Shown here: piece after piece, positions 9,148 to 60,010 of the stretch
Layout: the number at the start of each line of letters is the position of its first letter
How positions within the stretch are numbered: the stretch's first letter is position 1
Translations under genes and position numbers: made by a program
Origin: Candidatus Zixiibacteriota bacterium
GTDB lineage: Bacteria > Zixibacteria > MSB-5A5 > UBA10806
Reading direction: 5' to 3'
DNA length: 64,000 nt
NCBI GenBank assembly: GCA_024641335.1
Contig: JAHEDG010000010.1
Location: 9,910-73,909 of the forward strand
The notes under the pieces: generated by a model
Database searches by the model: none
Told to the model about the DNA's origin: nothing
The model's input: the letters and a program-made list of their open reading frames with translations, nothing else

Positions 9148-9312
9148 TCAAAATCTCTCCGCCTCATCGATAAGCATTACAGGGATATCATCCTCAATTC
9201 TATATCGCAGGCGGCATTTATCACAAATCAGTCTTTCATTATCTTTATCGTATTCCAGATCGCCCTTGCATTTAGGGCAGGCCAGGATATTAAGGAGTTT
9301 TTCGGGCAACAT
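9148..9312 (-). CDS. Trm112/YcaR-like small zinc-ribbon protein (UPF0434 family), missing from the ORF track because it is under 60 aa
   Basis: Own translation: [54 protein letters not shown]. CPxC...C motifs and the DIPVML tail are characteristic of Trm112-like proteins. Confidence 0.6.
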
Positions 9313-9326
9313 AAAATCCCCAGATT

Positions 9327-10310
9327 TTACAATTCTTTGACGACTCCGAGGGTCCGGTATTTTCTCAACCTGTCGGCCAGGAGTGTTTGTTTATCTTTTT
9401 GCGATAAGATATTCAATTTCTCAAGCAAAATATTTTTTAAAATCGCGGCGGCGGCGGCATAATCCCTGTGAGCTCCCCCTGCCGGTTCCGGGACAATTTC
9501 GTCGATGATCCCCAACCGCATGAGATCGTCGGGAATAGGTTTGAGGGCTTCGGCGGCCTGTATTCTGTTGGCCTCGGCTTGTTTAGGGTCATCGACCTGT
9601 TTCCAGAGAATGGCTGAACAGCCTTCCGGAGAGATGACCGAGTACCAGGAGTTTTCGAGCATCATGACTACGTCTCCTATACCGATACCAAGCGCTCCGC
9701 CAGATGCTCCCTCGCCGATGATGGTGACAATAATAGGGACCTCTATAACGGACATTTCCAGGATGTTGCGGGCTATGGCTTCGGCCTGCCCCCTTTCTTC
9801 CGCCCCGATACCCGGATAGGCGCCCGGAGTATCAACAAAAATGATGATGGGTCGATTGAATTTTTCAGCCAGTTTGAAAAGCCTGAGTGCTTTACGGTAG
9901 CCTTCGGGGTGGCTCATTCCGAAATTACGGTATTGCCGCTGTTTGACGTCACGTCCCTTTTGCTGCCCTACGAAAACAACCGGATGTCCATCAAGCGTAG
10001 CGAATCCTCCAACCATAGCCTTATCATCGGCGAAATACCTGTCGCCGTGAAGTTCCATGAAATCGTCGAAAACAAGAGGTACGAGATCGAACGAATACGG
10101 CCGCATGGGATGCCTGGCCAGCTGAACTCTCTGCCAGCGCGACAACCGAGAATAGACATCGGATTGAAGCCGGTTTCTTTTCTTTTCCAGATTTCGTATT
10201 TCAGATTCGAGTTCGGTATCGCCTGACAGGGCCAGGTCTTTCATCTGTTGGATTTTTTTATCGATCTCGATAATCGGTTTTTCGAATTCAAGGTAGTATT
10301 TGTCATCCAT
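9327..10310 (-). CDS. accA: acetyl-CoA carboxylase carboxyltransferase alpha subunit
   Basis: Strong AccA features (…[15 protein letters not shown]…, GGAHRD). The start is taken at [13 protein letters not shown] (10310) rather than the over-extended track start at 10382. Confidence 0.9.
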
Positions 10311-11352
10311 TATGGCCTCCCGACTTAATTTTACGGGAAAGAAATATGGCGATAAATATAATAAAAACGAACTCCAATACAAGAATAATATTGATTTTCC
10401 CTAAAACCAGCCCGACGGCCATGAATGAGAACTGGAGACTTATAATATAGAAAAACCAGACAACCCCCCTGTGGCTGAAGCCCTGCTCCAGGAGGTAATG
10501 GAAAAGATGCCGTCTATCAGCCATATATATTTTTTGGCCGGTTAACAGCCTTCTCAAAGTAGTACTAACCAGCTCGATAACCGGGAGCCCGAGGGCCAGA
10601 ATAGGGACGAACATGACGATGGAGGCATAGCTTTTGGGCCAATATAATGATAAAACTCCCAAAACATAGCCGATGAACAGCGACCCGGAATCTCCCATGA
10701 AGATCCTGGCCGGATATGAATTGAATTTCAGGAAAACCAGGCAGACTCCCAGGATGCCAGCGGCAAAAAGGGAGGCCAAGGGCAGGTCAAGGGCCACACT
10801 CAGGATCAGGAAGGTCATGGAAGCTATGGCCGCCACACCGGCCGCGAGACCGTCCAGACCATCGAGCAGGTTGAAAGTATTGGTAATCATCACCACCCAA
10901 AATACGCTTAAGGGGATACTCCAGTAGCCCAGGGCGACGACTTTGTAGTAGGGGATATTAAGAAAATCGGGGCGGATTCCCATGATCACCGGGATCATGG
11001 CGGCCAAAATCTGCCAGAACAATTTTGGGATTGGACTAACACCTTTGATATCATCGGTAGCTCCCAGAGCGAAAATGACAACTCCTCCCCCAATCAACCC
11101 CATTATGCCTTTCCAGTTTTCATACCAGAGTCCGGGATCGGCGATGAATCCCATCCAGACTGCCAGGGTGAAAGAGATAAAGAAAGCTACTCCGCCAAGG
11201 CGCGGGATAGGTGTCGAGTGCATTTTTCTCGGTCCGGGGAAATCGAGAAGCTCTTTGCGCAGGCAATAAGCGTTGATAATGGGCACCAGCATATAAGTTA
11301 GATATCCTGAAAGAAAAGTGACCAGAACGAAGGCCGGTATCCGCCAGTTCAA
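10303..11352 (-). CDS. polyprenyl-phosphate N-acetylhexosamine-1-phosphate transferase (MraY/WecA/TagO family)
   Basis: 349 aa, about 10 TM, with NTFNLLDGLDGLAAG and MGDSGSLFIGY motifs diagnostic of the MraY/WecA family. Confidence 0.8.
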   Translation of the reverse strand: MNWRIPAFVLVTFLSGYLTYMLVPIINAYCLRKELLDFPGPRKMHSTPIPRLGGVAFFISFTLAVWMGFIADPGLWYENWKGIMGLIGGGVVIFALGATDDIKGVSPIPKLFWQILAAMIPVIMGIRPDFLNIPYYKVVALGYWSIPLSVFWVVMITNTFNLLDGLDGLAAGVAAIASMTFLILSVALDLPLASLFAAGILGVCLVFLKFNSYPARIFMGDSGSLFIGYVLGVLSLYWPKSYASIVMFVPILALGLPVIELVSTTLRRLLTGQKIYMADRRHLFHYLLEQGFSHRGVVWFFYIISLQFSFMAVGLVLGKINIILVLEFVFIIFIAIFLSRKIKSGGHNG

Positions 11353-12215
11353 TTTTTTCGCCCTTTCTTAAAGACAGTTATGAGCGAGCTTACCACAAAA
11401 CCGGCCCAAAGAGCAACTAAAAGAAGAAGATTCAGGATCCGTTGATGGTCATAATGCTTTCTGAAATATTTCCAGACAGAGCTATGATGATGGAACGCCG
11501 ATAGATACGGTCGCCGGGACGATGACTGCCGCCATGAATGGTAAACTGTAACCGACGGCAACAAAAATATCTTCAGGCCTCTATCCGTAATTCTCCGGCA
11601 GAGGTCGAGATCTTCCAGGTACATGAAGAATCGCTCATCGAATCCTCCCAACTCCCGAAATAAAGCGGATTTGATGAGGACGGCTGTGGCTGAGACAGCC
11701 GGGACCTCAACGGGAGAATCGGAATCTGAAAGGATGTAGCCGGCTTTTTTCTCGCCGGTAATTCCGAGTTTGAACAAAGGTGATCCCCGTCCGAGGAGAA
11801 AATCCCGTCTCATGGGCATACGTCGGGCGGAAAGCTGCGGACGTCCATCGGGGTAGCAAAGCGCCGGGGAGATCAAGCCGACATCGGGGTTGTCATCAGC
11901 GTAAGCAAGCAGCCGCTCCAGGGCATCGGGTGGGATTAGAGTATCCGGATTAAGAATGAAAAGGTATTTCCCCCGCGCCCGCGCGGCGGCCCGATTAGCA
12001 GCCCGTCCATACCCCAGATTCCTCTGAGATAATATGGAATCGAAAGATTGATTTTTCAGAAATTCGGACGTGCCGTCATCGGAGGCGTTGTCGAATACGA
12101 TAATTTCGGATTTTATTCCCCTCGCGGATTTCAGGGAATCGACACATTTTTCAAGATGGCGGAGAGAATTATAGCTGACAATAATATTGCTTACGGAAAA
12201 CTCGTAAGGGATCAT
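11349..12215 (-). CDS. family 2 glycosyltransferase (GT-A fold), C-terminal TM
   Basis: VSYNSLRHLEKCVDSL…IIVFDNASDDGT… DxD-containing GT2 signature. 4-nt overlap with the upstream transferase gene. Confidence 0.8.
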   Translation of the reverse strand: MIPYEFSVSNIIVSYNSLRHLEKCVDSLKSARGIKSEIIVFDNASDDGTSEFLKNQSFDSILSQRNLGYGRAANRAAARARGKYLFILNPDTLIPPDALERLLAYADDNPDVGLISPALCYPDGRPQLSARRMPMRRDFLLGRGSPLFKLGITGEKKAGYILSDSDSPVEVPAVSATAVLIKSALFRELGGFDERFFMYLEDLDLCRRITDRGLKIFLLPSVTVYHSWRQSSSRRPYLSAFHHHSSVWKYFRKHYDHQRILNLLLLVALWAGFVVSSLITVFKKGRKN

Positions 12216-12309
12216 GAATGTCTCATCAGAGCGATATTGACTCCGGGGAAAGCGAAAGGAAACATGTCAAATGGAATCCCCGAGGCTTGATCGGAAGAAC
12301 CGCTCCCTC

Positions 12310-13545
12310 CTATCGTCTCGATCTAAGGGATTCTATTTCTTCTCTCAAGCCGACCATCATTTCAGCCAGAAAGCCGATGGCAAACAATAATAATCCCGAA
12401 AGGACCAGAAGGATGGTAGGGAAAAGCAAGGTTCTGGACCCGTGTTCGGTGAAATATCTGAGGTATAAGGCGAGCAGTCCGACAATGCCGCCAGACCCTC
12501 CCAAAATAAACCCCCACGTACCGAAAAGCCTCAGAGGTTTTTTCACAAACGAGATCTGAAATTTTACAGAGAACAAATCCAGAACGCCGTCCATAATCCG
12601 GCCCGCCCCGAATTTGCTTTTCCCGAATTTTCTGGGAAAGAGCTTGACCTTGACCTCGTCGATGACAAAACCCTGTTCAGCGGCCAGAACCACCAGGTAC
12701 CTGTGCCAGTCCCGGCGCAGAGTAATGGAATCGACCACATCTTTTTTGAAAGCTTTTACGGAGTTCATATCATGAATCTTCAAGCCGAAAAGCATTCGGC
12801 AGATTTTATTGTAAATAAAAGAGACTAATCTCTTATTGTATTTACCCTGTTTCCACCCGGCGACGACGTCGGCGCCCTGATCGATCCTGGCAATCATCCT
12901 GGGAATATCCTGCGGGCTGTACTGTAAATCGGCGGGATAAAACACCATAATCGAACCGTGCGCCTGTTTGAACCCGGTATTCAGAGCGGCAGTTAATCCC
13001 CGGTTGCGGGAGTACCCGGTAACCTTAAGCCAGGGGTAAGAGCGCGTGGCCTTACGGGCTCTTTCCTCTGTTCGATCGGTCGAGCCGTCATTGACATAGA
13101 TAACTTCCCACTCCGCTCCGGACTTTTTGATAACCTCATCGAATTGATCGAGCAGAGGCTGGACATTGTCTTCCTCGTTATAGGCCGGTATTATTACGCT
13201 GACTTTGGTTCTTGCTTTCCCCTTAAATCTATTATTATCGCGGTCACGTCCCGGTCGAGAGTCTGACCGGTCCCTTTTTCTGTCGCCGTACTGATTGGGT
13301 TTTCTTTCGGGTCTTCTTTGTTCCCTCCGTTGTGGGGGCTGAGAAGATCGGGGTCTATTTGATTCGGACTCTTTTCTTGTCTCCACTGATACTTCCGGCT
13401 TGATAATCGGAGGTATTTCTTTGGGAGTTTCTTCGGCCGGCGCGGCCTTTTGTCCTTCGGCCTCGGGGTTTTTGGGGCTTTCGGCTACGGCAGGCTTAAA
13501 TTTCTTGACCCTTCTGCGACCATAAAGTCTTTCTCCGTTTTCCAT
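12310..13545 (-). CDS. GtrB/DPM1-like polyprenyl-phosphate glycosyltransferase (GT2) with C-terminal TM helices and an unusual ~110-aa K/R/E/P-rich N-terminal extension
   Basis: Core VSVIIPAYNEEDNV…YVNDGSTDRT…, plus a C-terminal 2-TM anchor as in GtrB/ArnC/Ppm1. The N-terminal 110 aa (…RRVKKFKPAVAESPKNPEAEGQKAAPAEETPKEIPP…RREQRRPERKPNQYGDRKRDRSDSRPGRDRDNNRFKGKARTK) is low-complexity but in frame with no internal ATG. Confidence 0.7.
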   Translation of the reverse strand: MENGERLYGRRRVKKFKPAVAESPKNPEAEGQKAAPAEETPKEIPPIIKPEVSVETRKESESNRPRSSQPPQRREQRRPERKPNQYGDRKRDRSDSRPGRDRDNNRFKGKARTKVSVIIPAYNEEDNVQPLLDQFDEVIKKSGAEWEVIYVNDGSTDRTEERARKATRSYPWLKVTGYSRNRGLTAALNTGFKQAHGSIMVFYPADLQYSPQDIPRMIARIDQGADVVAGWKQGKYNKRLVSFIYNKICRMLFGLKIHDMNSVKAFKKDVVDSITLRRDWHRYLVVLAAEQGFVIDEVKVKLFPRKFGKSKFGAGRIMDGVLDLFSVKFQISFVKKPLRLFGTWGFILGGSGGIVGLLALYLRYFTEHGSRTLLFPTILLVLSGLLLFAIGFLAEMMVGLREEIESLRSRR

Positions 13546-13684
13546 TTAATTCAATTCCCGCTGGTTAAAAATGTGAGATAAACCATTATCGCTTTCCCCT
13601 CGTGCATCGTTTCAAGCGTAAATTAACATTATTTTTCCGTTATTGGCAAGGCATTATCGATTCTATTCTCCTATACCGCTGTTA

Positions 13685-14782
13685 TCATATTTCGATCTTT
13701 CCCAGGGATAAATGCTCCCGACGCAGATAATAGAACCCGATGAGAGTAACCGGGATGAACTGACAAAGCCATAGGACTATGGAGAAAGACAGAGCCTCCC
13801 CTTTTGATATTCCGAACAGCCCCAGCGATTCGCAGTAGGCTCCGATACCGATAATCGGGGTGAAGGCGTTGGCGGTCAGTGTCATGGCCAAAGCCTCGAC
13901 CCTGGCGGTATTGAGATAATGGCCTATAATCCCCAGATGGTTCATGGCGCCGAAGGCGGCAACAACGGCAGCCTGGAAGACCCCGATATAGCCCGGAGCC
14001 GACGGGAGCATCACTCCGGCGGCCACAAAAAGCAACAGAATAAATGAGGCTATAAAGTGAGGATATATCCCAAAAGCCATGAATATGAAGTAATTAGATA
14101 AAGCGGTGATCACCCAGATAACCGCCGACCAGAAGGAAATTATCATGAGGATCTTCAAATTTTTGAAGACATTCAGGCCCTTTGTAAAATGGGATAATAT
14201 ACTTTCTATTTTTTTACGGAAGGATCCGGGAAGAAAAGAAAATATTTTCGAAACAAGCCGGATGATGCCTTCTCCTCGATATTTTAAGGCGACCAGAAAA
14301 AGGACGGCGGCGACATTAATAACGAGGGTGAAGATCCCGAATTTTTTAACCGCAGGAGGAAAAGGAACAAAGAGAATAACCAACCAGAACATGGTCAGCA
14401 ATGAGAGGCTGTCGAAAATCCGTTCCAGCACGATGGTGGCGAAAATGGAGGATCTCGATTCTCCCGTTGTCCTGCCCAAAGAGTACGCTCTGACCAGCTC
14501 GCCCAGCCTGGCAGGCAGAACGTTATTGGCCATAAAGCCGATCATAACCGCCGGAAACAGCCGAGCGGCTGTAAAGACCTTGACAGGCTGCAGCAGATAT
14601 TTCCATCGTTCCGCCCTGAGGCCCATAAGAAACATTACGGCGACCATGTTGGGAATGATCCATATATAGTTTACGTTCTTCAGCGAATAGATTATTTCTG
14701 CCGGTTCTACCCTTCTGAAAGCAAGATAAACAAATAGGGCGCTGACGATCAGGCCGATTGCGAGATTCAGCCGATTTTTCAA
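13685..14782 (-). CDS. UPF0104 / flippase-like (MprF-C / LPG_synthase_TM-like) integral membrane protein
   Basis: 365 aa, about 8 TM, no soluble domain. Sits inside the glycosyltransferase cluster, as is usual for this family next to GtrB-like GT2 enzymes. Confidence 0.6.
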   Translation of the reverse strand: MKNRLNLAIGLIVSALFVYLAFRRVEPAEIIYSLKNVNYIWIIPNMVAVMFLMGLRAERWKYLLQPVKVFTAARLFPAVMIGFMANNVLPARLGELVRAYSLGRTTGESRSSIFATIVLERIFDSLSLLTMFWLVILFVPFPPAVKKFGIFTLVINVAAVLFLVALKYRGEGIIRLVSKIFSFLPGSFRKKIESILSHFTKGLNVFKNLKILMIISFWSAVIWVITALSNYFIFMAFGIYPHFIASFILLLFVAAGVMLPSAPGYIGVFQAAVVAAFGAMNHLGIIGHYLNTARVEALAMTLTANAFTPIIGIGAYCESLGLFGISKGEALSFSIVLWLCQFIPVTLIGFYYLRREHLSLGKIEI

Positions 14783-15891
14783 TTATCTACGATCACCTTT
14801 TTCAAAATATCTTCAGTCATTCGAGCGGTTTTTTCCCATGAGAAATTAGCGGCCCAGCGCAATCCTCCCATTTCCAGGCTTTTTCGGAGCGGGTCATCGC
14901 TCAATATTTTAGTAGCCAGGGTGGAAATTTGCTCGATATCGCCGTATTCGAATAGTAATCCTGAATTATTTTCGTCAACCGAATCCTGCAATCCGGGAAC
15001 CCTCGAGGCCAGCACGGCGGTTCCGCAGGCATTGGCTTCGATATTGGTGAGCCCCCAGCCTTCTTTGAGCGACGGGTAGATAGAAAGATGAGCTTTGCGC
15101 AGATAGCCGACTTTCTCCTCTTCGGAAACAAAGCCTTTGAAGATAACAGAATTTTGCACTCCCAATTCGACGGCCAGGTTCATCAGAGTTTGCTGATAAT
15201 CTCCCTGACCGACGACAATAAATTGAGCGTCGGGAATCGCCTCCCTGATAGCGGGCAGGGCTTTTATAACTGTTTCGACCGACTTGTATTTTTTCAACCG
15301 CCCGACATAGAGAATGGTCGGAGTTTCGAACTTGGTTATCTGCGGATCAAACCGATAGATTTCCTTATCGATGCCGCATTCGACCACGTCGATATTGCCG
15401 CGGGGAATTCCCTTGCGCTCAACCTCGCCGGCGGTTGATTTGGAGATAACCATGAAGCGGTTATTTCTGTAGATCCATCCTACAGGTTTTTCGGCTATGA
15501 AAATATATGATCCCAGGACAAAATTTATTTCCTTAAAGACAGCGTCGGAAAACAGATGAGGAATAACCGTTAGCGTGGGGAGTTTTTGGTAGAGCGGCGA
15601 ATAGAACGGTATTTTATTTATATCCTCGATGACGACGTTATAATTGTTGGCTTTGATGAGCTTTCTCATGACGAAGGGAGCTACCCAGTTGAAATTAAGG
15701 CGGGCTCCGTGACGATATATTTTGATGCCGTCGACATTATCGACCTTTGCTCCTCCCGGGAAATTACTGCAAAGCAGATCGACCTGATGGCCATATGAGA
15801 CCAATCTGCTTAGAATCTCCTGCAGATGGACCTCGGCTCCACCGGCCTGGGGATTTTTCAGATCCTGCCAGTTGATCGCCAGGATTTTCAT
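14779..15891 (-). CDS. family 4 glycosyltransferase (GT-B fold)
   Basis: 370 aa with N-terminal GGAEVH and C-terminal EGWGLTNIEANACGTAVLAS (EX7E region) typical of GT4. 4-nt overlaps on both sides. Confidence 0.8.
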   Translation of the reverse strand: MKILAINWQDLKNPQAGGAEVHLQEILSRLVSYGHQVDLLCSNFPGGAKVDNVDGIKIYRHGARLNFNWVAPFVMRKLIKANNYNVVIEDINKIPFYSPLYQKLPTLTVIPHLFSDAVFKEINFVLGSYIFIAEKPVGWIYRNNRFMVISKSTAGEVERKGIPRGNIDVVECGIDKEIYRFDPQITKFETPTILYVGRLKKYKSVETVIKALPAIREAIPDAQFIVVGQGDYQQTLMNLAVELGVQNSVIFKGFVSEEEKVGYLRKAHLSIYPSLKEGWGLTNIEANACGTAVLASRVPGLQDSVDENNSGLLFEYGDIEQISTLATKILSDDPLRKSLEMGGLRWAANFSWEKTARMTEDILKKVIVDN

Positions 15892-18518
15892 TTGTTTTCC
15901 TCCGGAAAGTCCGGCAAGCTCTTGAGTTTTTCCTTAAGCTGGTCGAGAGACGTTTGAATATCCATATTATCCTCGAACTGTTTTCTAAATTTATCGATGA
16001 GGGAATCTGCCCGGGTAATATGGCCGTCTCGATAATATAATACCGCCAGATTATTGAGCGCGGAAAAAGAGTCGGGGTATTTGGACAGAACAATCACCAG
16101 TATTTTTTCGGCGGCCTCGAATTCCTGATCCATAATCAGCTCCTGAGAAATCGCCAGATAGATCTTTTCACCTTCAGGAGAATCGCATATGATTTCGGGG
16201 ATCCGGTCGATCTCTCCGCTCAAGGCAAATATTTTAGCTACATAAGCCCTGGATTGCCAGGGAGAGTCGTCGGAGCTGAGATTAAAGGCCAACTCGGCTA
16301 TCTTGACCGCCGAATCGGGCTCTTGCTGTTCTAAATAAGTTTCGGAGATTTTAAGCATAGCGACTATATAATTGGCGATAAGTCTTTTATCGTTTTCATC
16401 TTTTATTACCGAAGGGTCGGCGATACCTCTGAAGTTGGCCGGATTCCCCAACACCTTCATCCCGATCTCGGGTTCGACCCTATCCTTACCGGATGTTTCC
16501 ACTACCCTTAGGGCCATTCCTTCCATAATCAGATGATCGTCGAGGCCCAGACGGTTATCTTCGGAAACAGTTATGGCAAAATAAACCGGTATGTTCCAGC
16601 TGTCGTTACGGATATTGGTGACGATATGCTGGACCATCTGATCCTGCACTCTCCAGATTCCGGGGTAATCGGTGAATCTCTTCGGCTGCAGCTTGTCGAT
16701 TTCATCATCGCTGATACTGATCGGGACGTTCATTTGGTCTTTCAGCTGGTGAACATACCAGGACGTGTTGAGCAGGCTGAGGTTAACGACGCGCACGTCC
16801 AGACGCACTTTTTCGACCTCTTGAATATACCATAGCGGAAAAGTATCGTTATCTCCATTGGTGAAGAGGATACCGTTTTGGGCGCATGATTCCAGAATGT
16901 TTTCGGCATAATCGCGAGGGATAAAATTGCCCAGTCTGCTGTTATGCTGATAATTGGCATAAACGGTGTTGAAGGCCAGAAGGATAGCCACCAGCACAGC
17001 TGCGGCAAACGCCGGGATAAGCGCCGCGGCGCGCAATTTAAATTTATCGGCCAGGCCTCCCAGCCATTGGAGAAACATGGCTATTCCCATTCCGATGATA
17101 ATACCGTAGTACATATATCCGGGCGTGAAGAAGTAATCTCTGTTTCGGACCTCGGCGATGGGGGCAATGGCTGTATTGTAAGCGCCGTCAGAGAAGTTCA
17201 TGTACAGCATCAGTCCGATAGTGCCTATCAGGAACGAAATGAGCATGAAGGATCCTTCAGGGCCTGCCCGCCTGGACGATTCATATAACCCGTAAAAACC
17301 GATGATCAGAATATAGAATATCGGCAGGCTGAGACTGAATTCCGGGCTGGATGAACCATTACTTTTTCCTTTATCGGAGGCTTTGTACAGGGTGATTTTC
17401 TGATCGGGCGAGGCATACTGGGAGTTGAAATAGCCCAGAAGCCCGAACCTGGGATGAGCTATGAGTTGATTGCGCCAGCTTGCCCGACGTTGGAGCATGC
17501 GAGTAATCATCGATTCCTGTCCGTATTGTTTTCTTTCGAGAAAACCTTTGAAGCGATTGAAGGTGGCGGGATCGTTTTCGTTGATAGCCGGCTTCTGAGA
17601 GGCTCTGATGGGAATATACATTTGGGATGAAAACCCGATAACCGCCGAGATCATGACGAGTAAAGCGGTTCCCCAGGCGGCGGCCGCTGTACGTTTGAGA
17701 AGGCGATAAGCGGTTACGCTTCCGGTAATCATCAGGGCGAGGACGAAAATGCAGGCGAACGATTCGAGTTCAAAGGCGGCGATATCGATACCCAAAATAC
17801 CCAGAAGAGGCGTTTGTACCGGGGCGGCAAACAGTATGAACATTGACATAACTATCCAGACCGGCCAACGTTTTAACCCTGATTTTAAGAAATCATAATA
17901 AGCCAGATATAAAATCATGGGGATCAGGACCAGGAATACGGTCATGTGCACGCCCAATGACAACCAGAGCAGGTAGGAGATGAGAATCAGAAGTCTGTCA
18001 TTGCCGGGGCGGTCGATATTCTCGGCCCAGATAAAGGCCAGGTAATTGATAAGGAGCATGAGCAACATAGCCAGCGCGTAGACCTCGGCTTCGACCGCGC
18101 TCGACCAGAAGGTAGAGGAGAATCCCATAATAAGAGCGCCGCACAGCGCTCCGATACCGAGTCCGTATTTGGAGAGACCATTGGGGATCTTCGGACTACC
18201 GTTCAGAGCGATCCGGATTATCAGCCAATAGGCGACGACAACAGAGGCAGCCGCGCTCAGGACCGAGATAAGGTTGACCCTGACGGCAATATCGCCGGCT
18301 ATCGGGAGCAAAGTGAACAATCGTCCGATGATTATAAATAGCGGGTAACCGGGCGGATGTGGTATGCCCAGGATATAGGACGAAGCGATAAATTCTCCGC
18401 AATCCCAGAAGGAAGTTGTGGGAGCTTTGGTTATGTAATAAATGATAAGGCTGATAAATCCCGCTGCCAGGGATAAGATGAGGAAATATTTGTCTTTATA
18501 AAGCTTCATCAGCGTCAA
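15888..18518 (-). CDS. DUF2723/TMEM260-like GT-C fold membrane glycosyltransferase with C-terminal TPR repeats
   Basis: 876 aa. The N-terminus has FWDCGEFIASSYILGIPHPPGYPLF (acidic first-loop motif of PMT/ArnT-type GT-C enzymes; resembles DUF2723), followed by more than 10 TM helices. The C-terminal soluble region (…GDNDTFPLWYIQ…) carries TPR-like repeats. Confidence 0.6.
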   Translation of the reverse strand: MTLMKLYKDKYFLILSLAAGFISLIIYYITKAPTTSFWDCGEFIASSYILGIPHPPGYPLFIIIGRLFTLLPIAGDIAVRVNLISVLSAAASVVVAYWLIIRIALNGSPKIPNGLSKYGLGIGALCGALIMGFSSTFWSSAVEAEVYALAMLLMLLINYLAFIWAENIDRPGNDRLLILISYLLWLSLGVHMTVFLVLIPMILYLAYYDFLKSGLKRWPVWIVMSMFILFAAPVQTPLLGILGIDIAAFELESFACIFVLALMITGSVTAYRLLKRTAAAAWGTALLVMISAVIGFSSQMYIPIRASQKPAINENDPATFNRFKGFLERKQYGQESMITRMLQRRASWRNQLIAHPRFGLLGYFNSQYASPDQKITLYKASDKGKSNGSSSPEFSLSLPIFYILIIGFYGLYESSRRAGPEGSFMLISFLIGTIGLMLYMNFSDGAYNTAIAPIAEVRNRDYFFTPGYMYYGIIIGMGIAMFLQWLGGLADKFKLRAAALIPAFAAAVLVAILLAFNTVYANYQHNSRLGNFIPRDYAENILESCAQNGILFTNGDNDTFPLWYIQEVEKVRLDVRVVNLSLLNTSWYVHQLKDQMNVPISISDDEIDKLQPKRFTDYPGIWRVQDQMVQHIVTNIRNDSWNIPVYFAITVSEDNRLGLDDHLIMEGMALRVVETSGKDRVEPEIGMKVLGNPANFRGIADPSVIKDENDKRLIANYIVAMLKISETYLEQQEPDSAVKIAELAFNLSSDDSPWQSRAYVAKIFALSGEIDRIPEIICDSPEGEKIYLAISQELIMDQEFEAAEKILVIVLSKYPDSFSALNNLAVLYYRDGHITRADSLIDKFRKQFEDNMDIQTSLDQLKEKLKSLPDFPEENK

Positions 18519-18657
18519 TAGCGGAAACTTCTTTCGCTGTATGCCCGCGAAGATATCCGGGTATCAGAATCCTCCCTATCCAAAAAAAGCACCCTTAAAA
18601 AGGCGCCTATTAAGGTTTAATTTACGATATATTGTACTCCTGTCAATACCAAATGAT

Positions 18658-22537: not shown

Positions 22538-22557
22538 TGATCGCGCCAAAGACGCAA

Positions 22558-22692
22558 CCGGTCTTCTCTCATCCGGACTGTAACCGTCGGCGCCTGGATT
22601 TCACAGGCTCAGGCCGTCCTGATCATTCTGATCCGAAGGCCTCGCGGGCTTTAACCGCCGGTCGAGGATTTCCGCCTCGCCCCGAAGACAGA
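22558..22692 (-). ncRNA. FMN riboswitch (RFN element) aptamer upstream of ribD
   Basis: Reverse-strand read: …CUUCGGGGCGAGGCGGAAAUCCUCGACCGGCGGUUAAAGCCCGCGAGGCCUUCGGAUCAGAAUGAUCAGGACGGCCUGAGCCUGUGAAAUCCAGGCGCCGACGGUUACAGUCCGGAUGAGAGAAGACCGG. It contains the conserved RFN blocks (GGGGC.AGG…GAAAUUCC-like, GACCGGCGGU, AAGCCCGCGAGC, GCCGACGGU, ACAGUCCGGAUGAGAGAAG). Confidence 0.8.
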
Positions 22693-22696
22693 AGGA

Positions 22697-35543: not shown

Positions 35544-37715
35544 TTATAAATTTTCTCTGAGACCCAGAACTATTTTAGCGGTATTGGAAAGTAAGTCTTT
35601 TTTGAACAAAGACTTGGTAAAGCTTTTACGGGAGTATTCCTCGAGTTTTCCAACGGCAGTTTCGTCGCCGATGCGGTAGAGGGCTTTAATTATAGCGACT
35701 TGGATTTCCTCTTTGTTCTTTTTGGAGATACCAAGTTCATCGAAAAGAGAGTCGTTTTCGAAAATTTCAATAAGTAGATCTCGTGATTGAGAGTCTCCGA
35801 TCCTGCTGAGGGATGCGACAGCCAGCACCCGGCAATCGTCGATGGTTTTGAATATATGCATAAGTCTTTGGATCATATCTGGATGTCCAGATAGTCCCAT
35901 GGCGATAATAGCGACTTTCCGAACTTCAAACTCGGAATCGGAGGATAGTTTTTCGAGGAGTTTTCCGGTACCTGCCGCTGTCATCCCTTCGAGGGTCTTG
36001 ACTATCTCCATTCTTACCCGGATAATAGGCCATCCGGCCATAAGTTCCAGATACGGCAGAGCTTCCTCGGCGTTGATATCTTTCAATACCCGCAGGATAT
36101 TTCTGTAGAAATACCACTTTTCGTCCGATACCAGGCCGCCGTCGTATTTTCCCACCTCTTCGCCCAGAATACCGGTTAGAACTTCGGCGGATTCCTTTTT
36201 CATATTAACCAGTAGCTTTATGATCCTGGATCTGACATTAATATCCGGATGAGTAATTTTTGAGGCCAGAATTTTGACAATGGCCCTGGAGCCGAGATTG
36301 CCGAAGGCTTCAAAGAAATTGCCGACCTCATCGCTCCAATCCTGTTCGAGCAGTTCGTTCATGGTATCTTCGAGGAGCGTCGACTCGCTGATATCGAGAA
36401 GATTTTTCAAAGCCAGCTTTCGTTTGCTTTCCTGCTGCATGCGATCATCGGCCAGTCCTTTGAGGGTTCCGACTATATATTTCAGTTCTTCCCATCGTTT
36501 TCTTTTCAGCGATTGCCAGGCCATTTGCGAGGCCAGTTCCACAGGTTCGAGAGTATCGTTGGGAGATAGCGCTATCCTGACCACGTCGCGGCAAAGCGCT
36601 CCGAATTCGGAATGAAAACCTCCGCCGGAAAGAACTTCGCTGGCGGCGATTATCAGATTCAGACCCTGTTGCCGAAGTTCGATAGTCGGACCGTTGATGG
36701 AGCGGAGAAGTTCTTCGATCAGGTCGGTCAGATATTCATTTTGTTTATCAGCGGCCAGCTTGAAAACTATTTTTTTGAGTTCTCCGGGATTTACCAGCGA
36801 CGGGTCGGAGTTTTTGAGGATATCCAAGATATTTTCGGATTCCCGGAAGGCGCGGAGCTTGACCACCGATGTTTTATCGAAGATCTCTTCCAGAACAGCA
36901 TCGGGAGCTCCGACTCTTTTGAACAGCTGGTAGATATGATGGAGGTTTCCACCGGCGTCTTTTCTCGACAGATAATCCTTGAATAAACTGTTCAATCCCG
37001 AGAGCATGGTCTTATCCATCTCATCGTCAAGCCAGTTGGTCGAGAGGACAATATTCTCGATCAATTCTGCCGCGCTATCCCTGTCCATTTGAAGCAAAGT
37101 TTCTTTGAAATATCCGGTAAGGAAGCGCAGGCGTATATCGACATTGAGATATCCGGCCACATCGTCATCGGTTTTGAGACGTCCCATATAATAGGCTCCG
37201 ATGATATTTTGATTTTTGGATATGAGCTGTTTTATTCTACGGCTGAGGGATTTCAGATCAGAATCGCCGGGAGTATCAGGACCTTCGAAGCGAAATAAAT
37301 TCGGCGGGGCGCCGATATTAACCGAGACCGAATCGATATTATTGGATTTAAGCATTCTCTCAAGTGAATCATCGCGAGGGCCGGATTTAGCGATAAGACC
37401 GCTGAGCAGGTTATAGAGATCTCCTATATTGATATTGGAGCGGATAGCTATATTGCTCAAGTTATGTTTTTTCATGTCCATAGCCAAACCGGAAACATAT
37501 ACGGAATCGTCGAGCAATATTCCTTCGACCAGAAGCCGTTCTTTATAGAGCTCTATTGTAAAGCTATGTTTGAAGGAGAATATCACATTCAAAGCGTCAA
37601 GGGGCTTTTTCAGTGTCTCCTGGGTGACCGGATGTCCCAGAGGATACATGGAAAGTCTTCTCGAGCTTCCGTAGAGATGACGCAGGATTTCGAGACTTTG
37701 GGCTTTAATATCCAT
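35544..37715 (-). CDS. large soluble protein with C-terminal HEAT/armadillo-like repeats (function unknown)
   Basis: About 720 aa with no TM. The C-terminal third shows HEAT-like repeats (…HPDINVRSRIIKLLVNM…, …DSEFEVRKVAIIAMGLSGHPDM…, …VAIIKALYRIGDETAV…). The start is taken at the second Met (37715) to remove the overlap with the upstream gene. Confidence 0.45.
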   Translation of the reverse strand: MDIKAQSLEILRHLYGSSRRLSMYPLGHPVTQETLKKPLDALNVIFSFKHSFTIELYKERLLVEGILLDDSVYVSGLAMDMKKHNLSNIAIRSNINIGDLYNLLSGLIAKSGPRDDSLERMLKSNNIDSVSVNIGAPPNLFRFEGPDTPGDSDLKSLSRRIKQLISKNQNIIGAYYMGRLKTDDDVAGYLNVDIRLRFLTGYFKETLLQMDRDSAAELIENIVLSTNWLDDEMDKTMLSGLNSLFKDYLSRKDAGGNLHHIYQLFKRVGAPDAVLEEIFDKTSVVKLRAFRESENILDILKNSDPSLVNPGELKKIVFKLAADKQNEYLTDLIEELLRSINGPTIELRQQGLNLIIAASEVLSGGGFHSEFGALCRDVVRIALSPNDTLEPVELASQMAWQSLKRKRWEELKYIVGTLKGLADDRMQQESKRKLALKNLLDISESTLLEDTMNELLEQDWSDEVGNFFEAFGNLGSRAIVKILASKITHPDINVRSRIIKLLVNMKKESAEVLTGILGEEVGKYDGGLVSDEKWYFYRNILRVLKDINAEEALPYLELMAGWPIIRVRMEIVKTLEGMTAAGTGKLLEKLSSDSEFEVRKVAIIAMGLSGHPDMIQRLMHIFKTIDDCRVLAVASLSRIGDSQSRDLLIEIFENDSLFDELGISKKNKEEIQVAIIKALYRIGDETAVGKLEEYSRKSFTKSLFKKDLLSNTAKIVLGLRENL

Positions 37716-37720
37716 AGCTG

Positions 37721-38863
37721 CTACTCCTCCGGAAGTCCGAAACAATAGAGGTTCATATCCTCGCCGACTACAAATATTTTATTCTGGCAGGTTATGGGCC
37801 GAGTGGAGATCATGCCGTCGGTTTTGAATTTGTTTTTGACCAGGCCGCTGGCCTTATCGACAAAATAGACATTGAAATCGATGCTTGTAAATACAGCCAT
37901 TTGTTCGGTAAGAGCCGGCCCTGCCTTGACCGGTCCGGCGATCCTGTTTTTCCAGACAATATCACCGGTTTCGAAATCGAGCCGGACGATAAAACGGTTA
38001 TTGGTTCCGAAATACACTCCTTGGCCATCAGAGGCAATCGGTCCGTAGACCGGCAACTTCAAATCATGGTACCAGACAGTTTGGCCTGAGACCAAATTTA
38101 CTCTGGCAGCCTGGCCATCGGCCGAGCAAAAGATGACCTGATCTTCGACAATAACCGGGGCGTTTCTGATTCTCGCGCCGGTATCGAAGCTCCATAGCAG
38201 TCGTCCGCTCCGGGGATCGAAACATTCCAGGACGCCGTCATCCGGGAAGATAAGAATTCCGAGTTCGGAACCGGAAACGGGCGCGGAAACGGTCCGATCG
38301 ATTTTTCTATCCCAGATTCGTTTACCTTGTGAGATATCGAAGCATCGCAAGTATCCCATACCATCCAACCAAATAAGTTTATCACCCAAGACCAGTGGTT
38401 CTCCGCCGGCTCCATTCAGATCGGCCTCCCAAAGCTGTTGGCGGTCAACCCAATTTTCCACCATCAAGCGGTATCCACCGATATTCAGGACAGCCATAGA
38501 ATCCGATATGACTACAGGAGCCATAACCGGCTCCTTAAAGCTTATTTCGGCATAAATATCGCCGTTATTAGCCGAAACAACATGGAGTTTATTATCGGGT
38601 GTGGAAATAAGCAGGAAACCTAACGCGCCTGTAGGTTCGATGTGCAGCGGATATTTGAATTTTCTGACCCAGAGCAATCCAGGCTGTTGGGAAAACGATA
38701 TATCGGAGTATGAAGATCTTTCGGGGCTACCTCCGCTATGATTCCAGAGGCAGCCATCCGGTCGATCTTTCAATACTATGGGGGCGGACGGCCCGCACCC
38801 GCAGGCGGCCGCTATTACCCCTCCCAGTATGACCAGCGAGAATGTTTTCTTTAGAAGTTCCAC
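37721..38863 (-). CDS. PQQ-like / BamB-like beta-propeller repeat protein with signal peptide
   Basis: 380 aa. N-terminal signal/lipobox-like segment (…AAACGCG), then repeated …G.V…D..TG…W motifs of PQQ-type propellers (BamB/YfgL-like). Confidence 0.65.
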   Translation of the reverse strand: MELLKKTFSLVILGGVIAAACGCGPSAPIVLKDRPDGCLWNHSGGSPERSSYSDISFSQQPGLLWVRKFKYPLHIEPTGALGFLLISTPDNKLHVVSANNGDIYAEISFKEPVMAPVVISDSMAVLNIGGYRLMVENWVDRQQLWEADLNGAGGEPLVLGDKLIWLDGMGYLRCFDISQGKRIWDRKIDRTVSAPVSGSELGILIFPDDGVLECFDPRSGRLLWSFDTGARIRNAPVIVEDQVIFCSADGQAARVNLVSGQTVWYHDLKLPVYGPIASDGQGVYFGTNNRFIVRLDFETGDIVWKNRIAGPVKAGPALTEQMAVFTSIDFNVYFVDKASGLVKNKFKTDGMISTRPITCQNKIFVVGEDMNLYCFGLPEE

Positions 38864-57983: not shown

Positions 57984-58037
57984 TTATTCCTCCTTACACC
58001 AAGTATTTATTTAACGGGATACTATGTTATTTATTAT

Positions 58038-58877
58038 TTACTGTTTTTTCTTTCTTTTCAAGTAATCTTCTAATGCGACGATCTCACGACCCTTTTTCGC
58101 GGCAATCATCTGTCTTTTCTCCACAATCGCTCGCTCAATTATTACTAGGAGCAAATCCGAAATTAATTTATACATAGTAGCTTGGGCTTCAATACATTGC
58201 TGAAATTCCCTTTCAAAAACAATTTTCGTATATATTTTTGGAAGACGAAATTGCGGTTTTTCCTCTTCTGGTAAAATATCCATGAACATGCTTTCAAGAA
58301 ACAGTTTTCCCATATCTTCTGACCGGGTTGTTTTTGCCTGATGGATAGTTATGTTTCGGAATTTTCGATGCTCTTCCAAGAATTTGTGCACCGTTGAAAG
58401 CCGTTTCTTGATAGTACTCCTCCTAATCCGAGGTGAATTATAAATGATCTGGAATTTTGCGTCTTGATCTCTAAGACCGAATTCGTATGTTTTATTTATT
58501 AAGGCAAGACACACATCTTCAAGTGAAACAAGTAATATGTAAAACATCTTTTGATTGTAAAGAAAATAATCAATCTGTCTCATTTTAACACTTTTCAAAT
58601 AACTCGCCGAAGGAAATCTGCTCAATAGGAAAATGCAGTTTTCCAAATCTGAAAATATTCTAACGGTACCTGAAAACGAGTGCAAGACATCTACTATGTA
58701 GGACTCGGCTTTCGATAATGAAGCGTTTTGATCTCCGGTTAAATAATTTTCCATTTGCTGTGTCAATATTTTATATTCAGATTCGAATGGAATAAAATAC
58801 TTATTAAAGACGATACCTTCAAATAGTTTCTTATTGTCGTACCATTTCTTCCGTATCGTTTTTTTAATTGTCAGCAT
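58038..58877 (-). CDS. HEPN-like protein with R-N-xxx-H motif (candidate Abi/defence RNase) encoded in a low-GC single-gene island
   Basis: 279 aa, no TM. The motif …EEHRKFRNITIHQAKT… is an exact R-N-x3-H HEPN signature. The gene is clearly AT-rich by eye (GC not computed) against about 50% GC flanks, and is bordered by a REP-like repeat at 59009-59056. Confidence 0.4.
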   Translation of the reverse strand: MLTIKKTIRKKWYDNKKLFEGIVFNKYFIPFESEYKILTQQMENYLTGDQNASLSKAESYIVDVLHSFSGTVRIFSDLENCIFLLSRFPSASYLKSVKMRQIDYFLYNQKMFYILLVSLEDVCLALINKTYEFGLRDQDAKFQIIYNSPRIRRSTIKKRLSTVHKFLEEHRKFRNITIHQAKTTRSEDMGKLFLESMFMDILPEEEKPQFRLPKIYTKIVFEREFQQCIEAQATMYKLISDLLLVIIERAIVEKRQMIAAKKGREIVALEDYLKRKKKQ

Positions 58878-59008
58878 AAGACACCGTAATTTTCGCTGTC
58901 GGCAGACAAGTTACCGACTTACATTATCCTTCCCATTGTCCCGCTTCTGGATTCCCGCCCATACGGGTCCGTAGGACTTCCGCGGGAATGACAGGGTTCG
59001 TTCCCGGC

Positions 59009-59056
59009 GCGTCAGGATGTCAATTCATTCCATCCTGACGCATCACGCATCAATCT
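59009..59056. repeat. REP-like palindromic element, copy B (GCGTCAGGATG…CATCCTGACGC plus CATCAATC tail)
   Basis: An 11-bp inverted repeat with an 11-nt loop, just past the TPR-lipoprotein stop. It shares the tail …CATCCTGACGCATCA(CGCATCA)ATC with copy C. Confidence 0.45.
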
Positions 59057-59059
59057 GGC

Positions 59060-59833
59060 CTACTTTTGCTGTTTTATCAAAAAGATCGTGTCACGGGCTT
59101 TGTCGGCCCATTGGCCGGTCGGTTCCTTTTCGAGATACTTCTCAAACCACTCCCTGGATCTGTCATACTTTTTCTGCTCATAATAGAGTTGGCCGAGCAT
59201 AAAAATGGCCTCGGGCATCGAGCCAACCCTGACAGCGTCGAGGAACTTCGCTTCAGCCTCGGCGGTATCCCCCTCTTTCCAAGCGACTAACCCCAGGCCG
59301 TAATATCCCCGCGGATAAGTAGCGTCGACGGTTACAGCCATACCGAAATATTTTTTGGCCATCCGAAGATTGCCGCGCGCAAGCCAGATAGTGGCCATAT
59401 TCTGATAAGTTCTGGGATAGAGATTGTCTATGTCGGCTGCCCGATCGTACCAGATCAAAGCATCATCATAGTTGCCCTGCATATAGTAAATATTACCGAT
59501 TGACTGGTAAGCGTCGACATTGGCGGGATTATAGACAATAGCCCCGGTATAGTAAACAATAGCGCTATCATCCAAACCTATCTGCTGGTAGCAAACAGCC
59601 AATTCATGATAAGCCGGAGCGAAATTGTTTCTTTGTTTTAAGGTTTTCCTGAAATACGGAATGGCCTTCTGGGGCAGATTTTGGACCATAAATTGATGGG
59701 CTTTGGTGTAATTTTTCAGGTAGGCATCGTCGGGCTGAACAAAAACCCCGCAAGAGACGGTGAGGATAGCAGCGGCCAGAGTGGTTAAAACCGCGAACTT
59801 TGTGATTTTTTTCATTAATACCCTCAAAAACAC
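59060..59833 (-). CDS. TPR-repeat lipoprotein
   Basis: 257 aa with signal peptide and lipobox (…AAILTVSCGVF), then at least 5 TPR units (…AYHELAVCYQQIGLDD…, …AYQSIGNIYYMQGNYDDA…). Confidence 0.65.
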   Translation of the reverse strand: MFLRVLMKKITKFAVLTTLAAAILTVSCGVFVQPDDAYLKNYTKAHQFMVQNLPQKAIPYFRKTLKQRNNFAPAYHELAVCYQQIGLDDSAIVYYTGAIVYNPANVDAYQSIGNIYYMQGNYDDALIWYDRAADIDNLYPRTYQNMATIWLARGNLRMAKKYFGMAVTVDATYPRGYYGLGLVAWKEGDTAEAEAKFLDAVRVGSMPEAIFMLGQLYYEQKKYDRSREWFEKYLEKEPTGQWADKARDTIFLIKQQK

Positions 59834-60010
59834 CCGGTTTGATCAACGGTGATTTCTTATTATATTGTTTATATGCTCGATAATCAATTCGAATTTGAAA
59901 AAAACTCGATCCCGGTGATATTTAGGAGCTTATGAGATATTAGAATTATCAAGCGGTATCGAAAAAGGCTCCTGAACCGGAGTGCAGGGGCTGGTTCCGG
60001 GCCAAATAAG

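Follow-up and report, generated by a model that had tools for sequence, protein, structure and literature searches.

The window, the whole stretch of 64,000 nucleotides from a Zixibacteria genome that was analysed here, contains six minus-strand genes that probably form an operon attaching lipid-carried sugars to targets in the cell envelope, and these targets possibly include proteins. Judged from its sequence, the product of one of these genes is a bacterial protein related to TMEM260, which in humans acts as a protein O-mannosyltransferase. That the genes constitute a housekeeping envelope glycosylation operon, in which this TMEM260-family GT-C protein acts in a lipid-linked sugar pathway as proposed below, is given somewhat less than an even chance. 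The analysis established which genes are present and which families they belong to, as well as the GT-C fold of this protein, the conservation of its residues and the synteny of the locus.

The six genes were found in the list of open reading frames with the outer coordinates (10303-18518) given by the first-pass annotation. That annotation had let the cluster end with the GT-C gene, but by the direction of transcription this gene is the first (Table 1). It had also described the genes as translationally coupled. This holds for three of the five junctions, where 4-nt overlaps join the GT4 start to the GT-C stop (15888-91), the UPF0104 start to the GT4 stop (14779-82) and the PNPT start to the GT2 stop (11349-52), but not for the other two, where 139 nt and 94 nt separate the genes. 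In the database, the GT-C gene is called from ATG 18509, giving 873 aa. For the PNPT the N-terminus is conserved among orthologues, which supports the long start. In front of the cluster, the spacer after nusB probably separates the glycosylation genes from the rib-nusB unit, which is under FMN-riboswitch control; the promoter-like site and hairpin of the spacer are consensus matches only and are regarded as putative elements. At the other end more genes follow closely: accA begins 8 nt ahead of the end of the PNPT gene, and the same-strand run continues with mreC, mreD, PBP2 and rodA.

Table 1. Genes of the cluster and the preceding spacer, in order of transcription.
Feature	Position	Strand	Remarks
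nusB to GT-C spacer	18519..18657	-	putative promoter-like site 18646..18619; putative hairpin + T-run 18608..18580
TMEM260-family GT-C glycosyltransferase	15888..18518	-	876 aa; first in transcription order
GT4-family (Glycos_transf_1) cytoplasmic glycosyltransferase	14779..15891	-	370 aa
UPF0104 / LPG_synthase_TM membrane protein	13685..14782	-	365 aa
GtrB/ArnC/DPMS-type polyprenyl-phosphate glycosyltransferase, GT2 with C-terminal TM hairpin	12310..13545	-	411 aa
GT2 glycosyltransferase with hydrophobic C-terminal segment	11349..12215	-	288 aa
MraY/WecA-superfamily PNPT (polyprenyl-phosphate N-acetylhexosamine-1-phosphate transferase)	10303..11352	-	349 aa

The DUF2723 N-terminus that had been claimed for the 876-aa protein was confirmed by a match to Pfam TMEM260-like/DUF2723 (PF11028) at aa 39-208 (169.5 bits against a cut-off of 24.2) and by the motifs FWDCGEF and GIPHPPGYP; the precomputed domain assignments are PF11028 and PF28495 (TMEM260_2). 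The protein consists of a membrane core of about 13 TM helices with the GT-C fold, a periplasmic Rossmann-like domain (approximately aa 533-700) and a TPR-like tail (approximately aa 708-866), the C-terminal TPR domain being a mark of the TMEM260 family. Human TMEM260, an IPT-domain protein O-mannosyltransferase (PDB 9RQL/9RQM/9RQN), belongs to the same Pfam family and has the same three-part plan. A profile of the Zixibacteria orthologues was aligned with it (9RQL) in two blocks (E 2.9e-26), in which human D52, H67, E144 and D441 pair with the invariant or nearly invariant D39, H54, E145 and D556, and human RGD441LPGN pairs with NGD556NDTF. The strand-loop context of D556 is visible in the AF2 model (E550-553). 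The residues tested in the human protein include D52 and H67, which form part of the donor site, and D441, the catalytic base (bioRxiv 10.64898/2026.03.17.711096). D39, E42, H54, R305, R458, R460, D556 and D558 are invariant in all 83 homologues, which come from more than 15 lineages. Thus, the GT-C fold and the acidic residues in the first loop (D39 and E42), on which the first-pass annotation had made its reading depend, were both found. Human R264/Y267 (donor loop) and R355 (TMH10) are in regions outside the HMMER alignment, and the invariant R305 and R458/R460, at most candidate equivalents, occur in the corresponding loops. The two proteins differ in the number of TM helices (about 13 predicted versus 11 in the human protein) and in a conserved periplasmic loop of some 90 residues (aa 308-397; PAINEN, ERKQYGQESM) that is not matched in the alignment. 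Unlike human TMEM260, the window protein must use a bacterial polyprenyl phosphate as carrier, and its gene is located in an operon with presumed donor-supply genes. A literature search revealed no experiment on any bacterial member of the family.

Every other domain call was checked with profile HMMs as well, and all were far above the Pfam curated cut-offs (98 and 80 bits for the two Glycos_transf_2 proteins). The assignment of the 411-aa GT2 (Pfam 9e-28) as a polyprenyl-phosphate glycosyltransferase is sound, because it was aligned to ArnC, PfDPMS and GtrB, which are all enzymes of this type: its PDB matches are ArnC (1e-28) and GtrB sll0501 (4.5e-22), both in full-length alignment, and the catalytic domain of P. 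furiosus Dol-P-Man synthase (PfDPMS, 1e-23). The NCBIfam models PgfS and ArnC match at about 3e-31 over aa 113-398, covering positions 6-294 of 316 in the ArnC profile. Two hydrophobic helices are present at aa 340-400, and a low-complexity N-terminal extension of about 110 aa is kept only in Zixibacteria. The 288-aa GT2 (Pfam 2e-22) has weak PDB matches only; it shows a weak likeness to WbbL-type rhamnosyltransferases and GlfT1, and matches the rhamnosyltransferase model TIGR01556 under its cut-off (4.6e-8). By its family match the PNPT is an initiating enzyme of the MraY/WecA superfamily (Glycos_transf_4, 131 bits, 5e-38), which bears out its earlier description as WecA/MraY-like. It is neither equivalog, because it scored 90.8 bits against 326 for wecA and 83.9 against 192 for mraY (NCBIfam). 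The GT4 protein (Glycos_transf_1, 136 bits, 9e-40) gave only generic matches in PDB and NCBIfam, PimB' and PimA being among those in PDB. The UPF0104 protein matched LPG_synthase_TM (179 bits, 2e-52) and the 'flippase-like' model TIGR00374 (1e-29), and is homologous to the MprF flippase domain; a sequence search for solved structures gave no homologue.

The TMEM260-type GT-C family is widespread in the FCB group, Bacteroidota included, and many genomes contain several paralogues with unrelated neighbours. Whether the cluster stays together in relatives had been a further point on which the earlier reading hinged. It is kept as a unit in related Zixibacteria, where the full six-gene order is repeated with GT-C proteins 55% and 43% identical, and across FCB phyla its core persists. 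The GT-C, GT4, UPF0104 and GtrB-like genes were found together again in other FCB phyla, at loci where genes for RmlD (rmlD), for a SAM methyltransferase and for a 240-aa GT2 matching Dol-P-Man synthase (3.5e-32) are often present as well. Linkage of the GT-C and synthase genes was observed in three Zixibacteria genomes and at loci of Latescibacterota, Fibrobacterota and Eisenbacteria; among the 44 loci with enough flank, only 7 have a member of the GtrB-like/short-GT2 cluster in the vicinity of the GT-C gene. A UPF0104 gene is nearby at 13 loci. The most widely conserved neighbour is not the GtrB-like gene but the GT4 gene, of which full-length orthologues (37-44% identity) adjoin the GT-C gene in Fibrobacterota, KSB1, Cytophagia, Chitinophagaceae, Ignavibacteria and Chlorobi.

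The combination of a GtrB/ArnC-type GT2, a candidate translocator and a GT-C protein is also encoded by GtrA/GtrB/GtrC, ArnC/ArnT, CsbB/GtcA/YfhO and GacI-L. The window differs from these systems in that its candidate translocator is a UPF0104 protein (neither GtrA-family nor Wzx flippases were among the Pfam families of the cluster), that its GT-C protein is of the TMEM260 family, and that a conserved GT4 and a PNPT + GT2 module are added. In archaea, a neighbourhood of UPF0104 (arCOG00899), AglD-like GT2 and PMT/STT3-like GT-C genes was predicted to function in protein glycosylation, UPF0104 acting as the flippase (Makarova et al., 2015; PMC5898192). This triad, whose assignment is a prediction, has the same three domain families; its GT-C family is different, and fusions of UPF0104 with the GT2 are frequent there, in contrast to the separate genes in the window. 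The triad logic put forward by the first-pass annotation is thus strengthened by the archaeal precedent and by the full-length GtrB alignment.

In the pathway that we propose, the GtrB/ArnC/DPMS-like GT2 would use a nucleotide sugar to charge undecaprenyl phosphate with one sugar residue at the cytoplasmic face of the membrane; a hexose, for instance mannose or glucose, is the likeliest choice. UPF0104 would bring a lipid-linked sugar to the periplasmic face, the direction of flipping being presumed. The donor would then be held in the GT-C membrane core by D39, H54 and E145, and D556 of the Rossmann-like domain would activate the acceptor hydroxyl. The identity of the acceptor is something we only infer: held by the TPR tail, it would most likely be an extended stretch of an exported protein, resulting in Ser/Thr O-glycosylation. 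The PNPT and the second GT2, possibly with GT4, may act in the cytoplasm to assemble a short glycan on undecaprenyl diphosphate. This glycan would go into the same envelope glycoconjugate or into a parallel one, the link between the branches being presumed. Counting against this pathway are the lack of a defined role for GT4, the most conserved partner, the single flippase-like gene for two kinds of lipid-linked intermediates, the low share of loci with a GtrB-like/short-GT2 gene nearby (7/44), the many genomes with several GT-C paralogues among unrelated neighbours, and the human R264/Y267 and R355, for which no confident alignment was obtained.

A glycolipid pathway following PIM, GPI or GlcN-PG logic is considered unlikely. 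GT4 would glycosylate a membrane lipid (phosphatidylglycerol, diacylglycerol or similar) at the cytoplasmic face, UPF0104, characterised as a phospholipid translocator, would flip it, and GT-C would extend it in the periplasm with Und-P-sugar from the GtrB-like GT2. This reading competes with protein O-glycosylation because GT4 + UPF0104 pairs make glycosylated membrane lipids: such an operon, gpgSDF, makes GlcN-phosphatidylglycerol in P. aeruginosa, hexSDF of C. difficile is analogous, and UPF0104 is predicted to flip the product. Unlike these systems, the cluster also carries a GT-C gene and an Und-P-sugar synthase gene. The GT-C, GT4 and UPF0104 genes are joined by the 4-nt overlaps and are the portion that even the most distant Zixibacteria retain, as does a MAG labelled Ignavibacteria, and the PDB matches of GT4 include PimB' and PimA. 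However, the six proteins lack a deacetylase (Pfam), and the GT4 is not a GpgS equivalog: an orthologue (locus L010) scored 44.8 bits against a cut-off of 480 with the GlcNAc-PG synthase model NF053787, a model absent among the 25 listed matches of the window GT4. In addition, GT-C keeps the full acceptor apparatus of a peptide enzyme, comprising TPR and a Rossmann-like domain that contains the catalytic Asp, and its nearest structures are protein transferases, ranking above AftB, ALG9 and GPI mannosyltransferase. That AftB and ALG9, together with ALG12, are nevertheless good structural neighbours is consistent with a periplasmic reaction that decorates or extends a lipid-linked glycan or a polysaccharide of the cell surface (GtrABC, GacIJKL or luminal ALG logic), a reading likewise judged improbable. 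Here PNPT, GT2 and GT4 would make an Und-PP-oligosaccharide to which, after export, GT-C adds a branch sugar from Und-P-sugar, and a ligase encoded elsewhere would join the product to LPS, peptidoglycan or protein. This would be the mechanism of known three-component systems. The full cytoplasmic assembly set is in one operon with the synthase and GT-C genes, and the GT2 + initiating-transferase module beside accA persists in other FCB phyla despite a family swap, a GT2-Bac_transf fusion replacing the PNPT. Against it, Wzx, Wzy, ABC exporter and Wzy_C ligase (the PglL/WaaL-type O-oligosaccharyltransferase domain) were absent from the six cluster proteins by Pfam, and a scan of ten other window ORFs did not recognise any of them either; in many phyla GT-C and GT4 genes are found without a nearby initiating transferase, and GT-C is homologous to a protein-directed enzyme whose catalytic base is conserved.

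En bloc transfer of the glycan to proteins, as by PglB, seems very unlikely. It would place five of the six genes in a single linear pathway, with PNPT, GT2 and GT4 assembling the Und-PP-oligosaccharide, UPF0104 flipping it and GT-C acting as O-oligosaccharyltransferase, but it leaves no role for the GtrB-like synthase. The donor of the sole family member characterised so far is a single sugar on a monophosphate carrier (Dol-P-Man), and there is no record of UPF0104 proteins that translocate diphosphate-linked oligosaccharides. It is hardly to be expected that the six genes are not one system but housekeeping neighbours in a long array (rib-nusB ... accA-mreCD-pbp2-rodA), their order kept by descent. 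Gene order around the cluster, with ribBA-ribH-nusB upstream and accA downstream, is also kept across phyla, and the two internal gaps could hold promoters; yet each of the six products has its place in lipid-linked glycan metabolism, and GT-C pairings with GT4, UPF0104 and GT2 recur in three GT-C clades with differing flanks (LepA-S26-rSAM, RecG-DUF1844 and nusB).

The general protein O-glycosylation of Bacteroidota builds a mannose-rhamnose core, with an LFG locus for the outer glycan. The machinery for this core, its flippase and its transferase were described as undiscovered in a review, and the reported core chemistry comprises mannose, rhamnose and O-methyl groups (PMC12871550). At the level of gene content, the rmlD, methyltransferase and Dol-P-Man-synthase-like genes of the related loci match this chemistry.

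The glycosylation cluster was found to consist of six minus-strand ORFs with exactly the outer coordinates given by the first-pass annotation (10303-18518), and each of its domain assignments was upheld with a wide margin by Pfam and NCBIfam (see the table). That annotation let the cluster end in the gene of the TMEM260/DUF2723-family protein (GT-C), which is, however, the first gene in transcription order. The genes had also been described as contiguous and coupled; this holds for three junctions, where 4-nt overlaps occur, but not for two others, which show gaps of 139 and 94 nt. The cluster is not set apart from its surroundings. accA begins at ATG 10310, within the gene for the MraY/WecA-superfamily protein (PNPT), so that the two genes overlap by 8 nt (10303-10310), and accA is followed in the same run by a small Trm112p-like ORF, a PTS-IIA-like gene, mreC, mreD, the PBP2 gene and rodA. 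On the 5' side lies ribD-ribE-ribBA-ribH-nusB, preceded by an FMN riboswitch, and a hairpin with a T7 run follows nusB directly ahead of the glycosylation genes. Promoter and terminator scans gave matches at consensus level only; the operon boundaries are putative. Rfam families and tRNAs were sought within the cluster and none was found, and a Pfam scan of ten further ORFs of the window recognised no rml, DUF4837, methyltransferase or second GT-C gene. In each of the three Zixibacteria loci accA is followed by the Trm112p-like ORF, a zinc ribbon of 54 aa.

Features of the window and of homologous GT-C loci fetched from other genomes (L numbers)
Feature	Sequence	Position	Strand	Support
TMEM260-like/DUF2723 GT-C, 876 aa	window	18518..15888	-	Pfam 8e-50
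Glycos_transf_1 (CAZy GT4), 370 aa	window	15891..14779	-	Pfam 9e-40
LPG_synthase_TM (UPF0104), 365 aa	window	14782..13685	-	Pfam 2e-52
GT2, GtrB/ArnC-like, 411 aa	window	13545..12310	-	Pfam Glycos_transf_2 9e-28
N-terminal extension of GtrB-like GT2	window	13216-13545	-	
GT2, 288 aa	window	12215..11349	-	Pfam Glycos_transf_2 2e-22
Glycos_transf_4 (MraY/WecA superfamily; PNPT), 349 aa	window	11352..10303	-	Pfam 5e-38
Trm112p-like ORF	window	9180-9330		
Hairpin + T7 run	window	18608..18580		
FMN riboswitch	window	22557-22693	-	RF00050, 100 bits
HEAT-repeat protein	window	35544-37745	-	
BamB-like PQQ_2 lipoprotein	window	37721-38863	-	
Omp85 fusion, 952 aa	window	38851-41709	-	
Low-GC patch	window	58001-60000		GC 0.41
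HEPN_Cthe2314-like ORF, 279 aa	window	58038-58877	-	
TPR protein	window	59060-59833	-	
240-aa GT2	L010	19445-20167		
240-aa GT2	L016	16963-17688		
240-aa GT2	L007	15931-16647		
GT2 + CoA_binding_3 fusion	L007	16644-18269		
GT2 + CoA_binding_3 + Bac_transf fusion	L014	10417-12495		

A database protein from a Logan assembly has the same sequence as the GT-C protein, save for a start codon called three residues downstream, and relatives of the GT-C protein at 40-58% identity carry a Zixibacteria annotation. Modelled with AlphaFold2 on the basis of 24 orthologues (pLDDT 78.6, pTM 0.78), the protein showed some 13 membrane helices, a mixed alpha/beta domain at approximately residues 533-700 and paired helices at about 708-866; the top Foldseek matches were STT3, PglB, AglB, ArnT and DPY19. 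The orthologue profile aligned with the human TMEM260 sequence (9RQL) in two blocks (E 2.9e-26). Human TMEM260 consists of a GT-C core, a Rossmann-like domain and TPRs, in which D52 and H67 bind the donor and D441 of the Rossmann-like domain is the catalytic base (2026 cryo-EM preprint, bioRxiv 10.64898/2026.03.17.711096). In the profile alignment D52 corresponds to D39 of the GT-C protein (context FWDCGEF), H67 to H54 (HPPG), E144 to E145 and D441 to D556 (NGDNDTF). The 83 bacterial homologues in the fetched loci showed no variation at D39, E42, H54, E143, R305, R329, Q331, Y332, N441, R458, R460, G555, D556, N557, D558, T559, W563, W587 and Y588. By its fold, the aligned human residues and this invariance the GT-C protein therefore agrees with the TMEM260 family in every sequence and fold feature that could be compared; the human donor-loop R264/Y267 and R355 could not be aligned.

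More than 597 GT-C relatives were found when each GTDB species was scanned through one genome. The 80 loci that were kept belong to Zixibacteria, Latescibacterota, Fibrobacterota, Gemmatimonadota, Ignavibacteria, Chlorobi (including a cultured Prosthecochloris), Bacteroidota, Marinimicrobia, KSB1, Calditrichota, Cloacimonadota, Eisenbacteria and WOR-3, which is essentially the FCB group. When residues 1-700 served as query in an exhaustive phmmer search, 16,662 representatives of 50%-identity clusters were obtained at E <=1e-3 and 8,192 at E <=1e-10. With a Bacteroidales GT-C as seed all matches returned were proteins of uncultured MAGs, and none was from B. fragilis, P. gingivalis, T. forsythia or F. 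johnsoniae. One Bacteroidales-type paralogue, on a 6.4-Mb contig, is without glycosylation neighbours, and a second, unlinked Zixibacteria paralogue clade (L002, L003, L011, L068) has unrelated neighbours. Two TMEM260-type GT-C genes occur in one locus in L010, L014 and L018, where they are adjacent, and in L048 and L069, where two genes lie in between. In the Bacteroidales versions, which are up to 1,147 aa long, an additional domain (PF28497, DUF8416) is inserted.

Among the other products the GtrB-like GT2 aligned with ArnC (1e-28), the Dol-P-Man synthase of P. furiosus (1e-23) and Synechocystis GtrB (4.5e-22), which are all polyprenyl-phosphate glycosyltransferases; the alignments to ArnC and GtrB take in the membrane hairpin. 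Its N-terminal extension of 110-140 aa is charged and of low complexity (rich in Lys, Arg, Glu and Pro), starts with MxxxExxGRxR and is kept in three Zixibacteria orthologues, but those of Latescibacterota and Fibrobacterota are without it. A mis-called start was rejected as its explanation, as orthologues share both the extension and the 13 residues at its beginning. UPF0104 is the flippase domain of MprF, and a sequence search with the UPF0104 protein found no solved homologue. The GT4 and the 288-aa GT2 gave generic matches only, the latter with weak similarity to rhamnosyltransferase. PNPT, whose long start is backed by a conserved N-terminus, is no equivalog of WecA or of MraY in NCBIfam, and on this score it was rejected as the MraY of the cell.

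Conservation as a unit, which the first-pass annotation had made a test of its reading, was found in related Zixibacteria. The full order nusB, GT-C, GT4, UPF0104, GtrB-like GT2, GT2, PNPT, accA recurs on a complete chromosome (GT-C 55% identical) and on a metagenomic contig (43%), in which a methyltransferase is inserted ahead of the GT-C gene; more distant Zixibacteria retain GT-C, GT4 and UPF0104 alone. All ORFs of 84 loci were clustered and a neighbour-joining tree of the GT-C proteins was made, in which three clades retain glycosylation partners amid differing flanking genes. Clade 1 (Zixibacteria, Latescibacterota, Fibrobacterota) has nusB, GT-C, GT4, then UPF0104 and/or the GtrB-like GT2. 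Clade 2 (KSB1, Calditrichota, Cytophagia, Marinimicrobia) has a methyltransferase, GT4, one or two GT-C, GT2, UPF0104, DUF4837, rmlD and a 240-aa GT2, with a GT2-CoA_binding_3-Bac_transf fusion before accA. Clade 3 (Bacteroidota, Ignavibacteria, Chlorobi) has LepA, two signal peptidases, a radical-SAM gene, GT-C, a methyltransferase and GT4. A partner was present in 20 of the 44 loci that are flanked by 6 kb or more on each side (GT4 in 15, UPF0104, GT2 and methyltransferase in 8 each, GtrB-like or short GT2 in 7, rmlD in 5), and the GT4 orthologues, 37-44% identical between phyla, are better conserved than the GT-C protein.

The 240-aa GT2 that directly follows rmlD in L010 matched the P. furiosus Dol-P-Man synthase at 3.5e-32, far above its ArnC match; it is a candidate polyprenyl-phosphate-mannose synthase of the related clusters. 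In other FCB phyla the fusions of L007 and L014, the latter with Bac_transf, stand before accA, so that an initiating phosphoglycosyl transferase of a different superfamily takes the place of the Zixibacteria GT2 and PNPT. This exchange at the same site argues that the function, and not merely the gene, is kept there. In seven loci (L021, L022, L028, L030, L032, L033, L039) two genes for signal peptidase I and one for a HemN-like radical-SAM protein precede the GT-C gene, in most with lepA upstream; this linkage with protein export genes in Bacteroidota, Ignavibacteria and Chlorobi could be functional or merely an inherited order.

The best-supported scheme for the cluster has three steps: the GtrB-like enzyme would make an undecaprenyl-phosphate sugar, UPF0104 would translocate a lipid-linked sugar and the TMEM260-type GT-C would transfer the sugar in the periplasm. 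A triad of GT2, UPF0104 and GT-C has an archaeal precedent, predicted in 2015 (PMC5898192). The glycosylation reading of the first-pass annotation is supported as far as sequence and structure reach, with a putative acceptor and sugar. The catalytic base in an acceptor-side domain, the TPR tail and the protein transferases as nearest structural neighbours favour, by homology, Ser/Thr of proteins as the putative acceptor.

The weak point is GT4, the most faithful partner of GT-C, which is without a role in the simple three-component scheme. Operons of GT4 and UPF0104 are known to make glycosylated membrane lipids (gpgSDF), the flipping there being predicted only. GT-C might therefore lengthen a glycolipid in the manner of PIM or GPI synthesis; against the features that point to a protein acceptor we consider this rather unlikely. 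A similarly low probability is given to GT-C adding a branch to an Und-PP-linked glycan assembled by PNPT, GT2 and GT4, and transfer of such a glycan en bloc to proteins seems more improbable still. The three-step scheme and GT4 would be linked if, speculatively, GT4 or GT2 put a second sugar on Und-P-hexose before flipping, so that GT-C would transfer a disaccharide.

Only since 2023 has TMEM260 been known as a protein O-mannosyltransferase; its structure is available as a 2026 preprint. Full-text literature searches retrieved TMEM260 work in animals only and none on bacterial DUF2723/PF11028 proteins. The O-glycan of Bacteroidota has a conserved reducing-end mannose, rhamnose and glucuronic acid with frequent O-methylation; its core-glycan enzymes, flippase and transferase are described as undiscovered, and relatives of eukaryotic O-mannosylation are advised as the place to seek them (2025 review, PMC12871550). 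Compared with this core, the FCB loci hold an O-mannosyltransferase homologue, Dol-P-Man-synthase-like and GtrB-like GT2s and a flippase-like protein, and further rmlD, a methyltransferase and more glycosyltransferases. Such a content appears to fit the reported chemistry, which is suggestive but circumstantial. It is conceivable, though doubtful, that GT-C with GT4, UPF0104, the Dol-P-Man-synthase-like or GtrB-like GT2, rmlD and the methyltransferase forms the long-sought core machinery for general protein O-glycosylation in the FCB group, which would place mannose (and rhamnose) on Ser/Thr of exported proteins and of which metazoan TMEM260 would be a descendant. Specific candidate genes for each of these steps (transferase, flippase and core glycan) can be read from the locus and its relatives, so that knock-outs combined with glycoproteomics in culturable relatives could address the question. 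The bacterial TMEM260 relatives are a large family in a deeply conserved housekeeping neighbourhood throughout the FCB group. All parts of the cluster belong to known families; what has not previously been described is that a TMEM260-type GT-C is combined with UPF0104 and a conserved GT4 in a housekeeping array.

Elsewhere in the window lies an unusual Omp85 fusion, in which Peptidase_MA_2 and PD40 beta-propeller repeats are joined to an Omp85 barrel at the C-terminus; its gene is followed by those of the BamB-like lipoprotein and the HEAT-repeat protein. The low-GC patch (about 0.49 elsewhere), which contains the HEPN_Cthe2314-like ORF and the TPR protein gene, may be acquired DNA.
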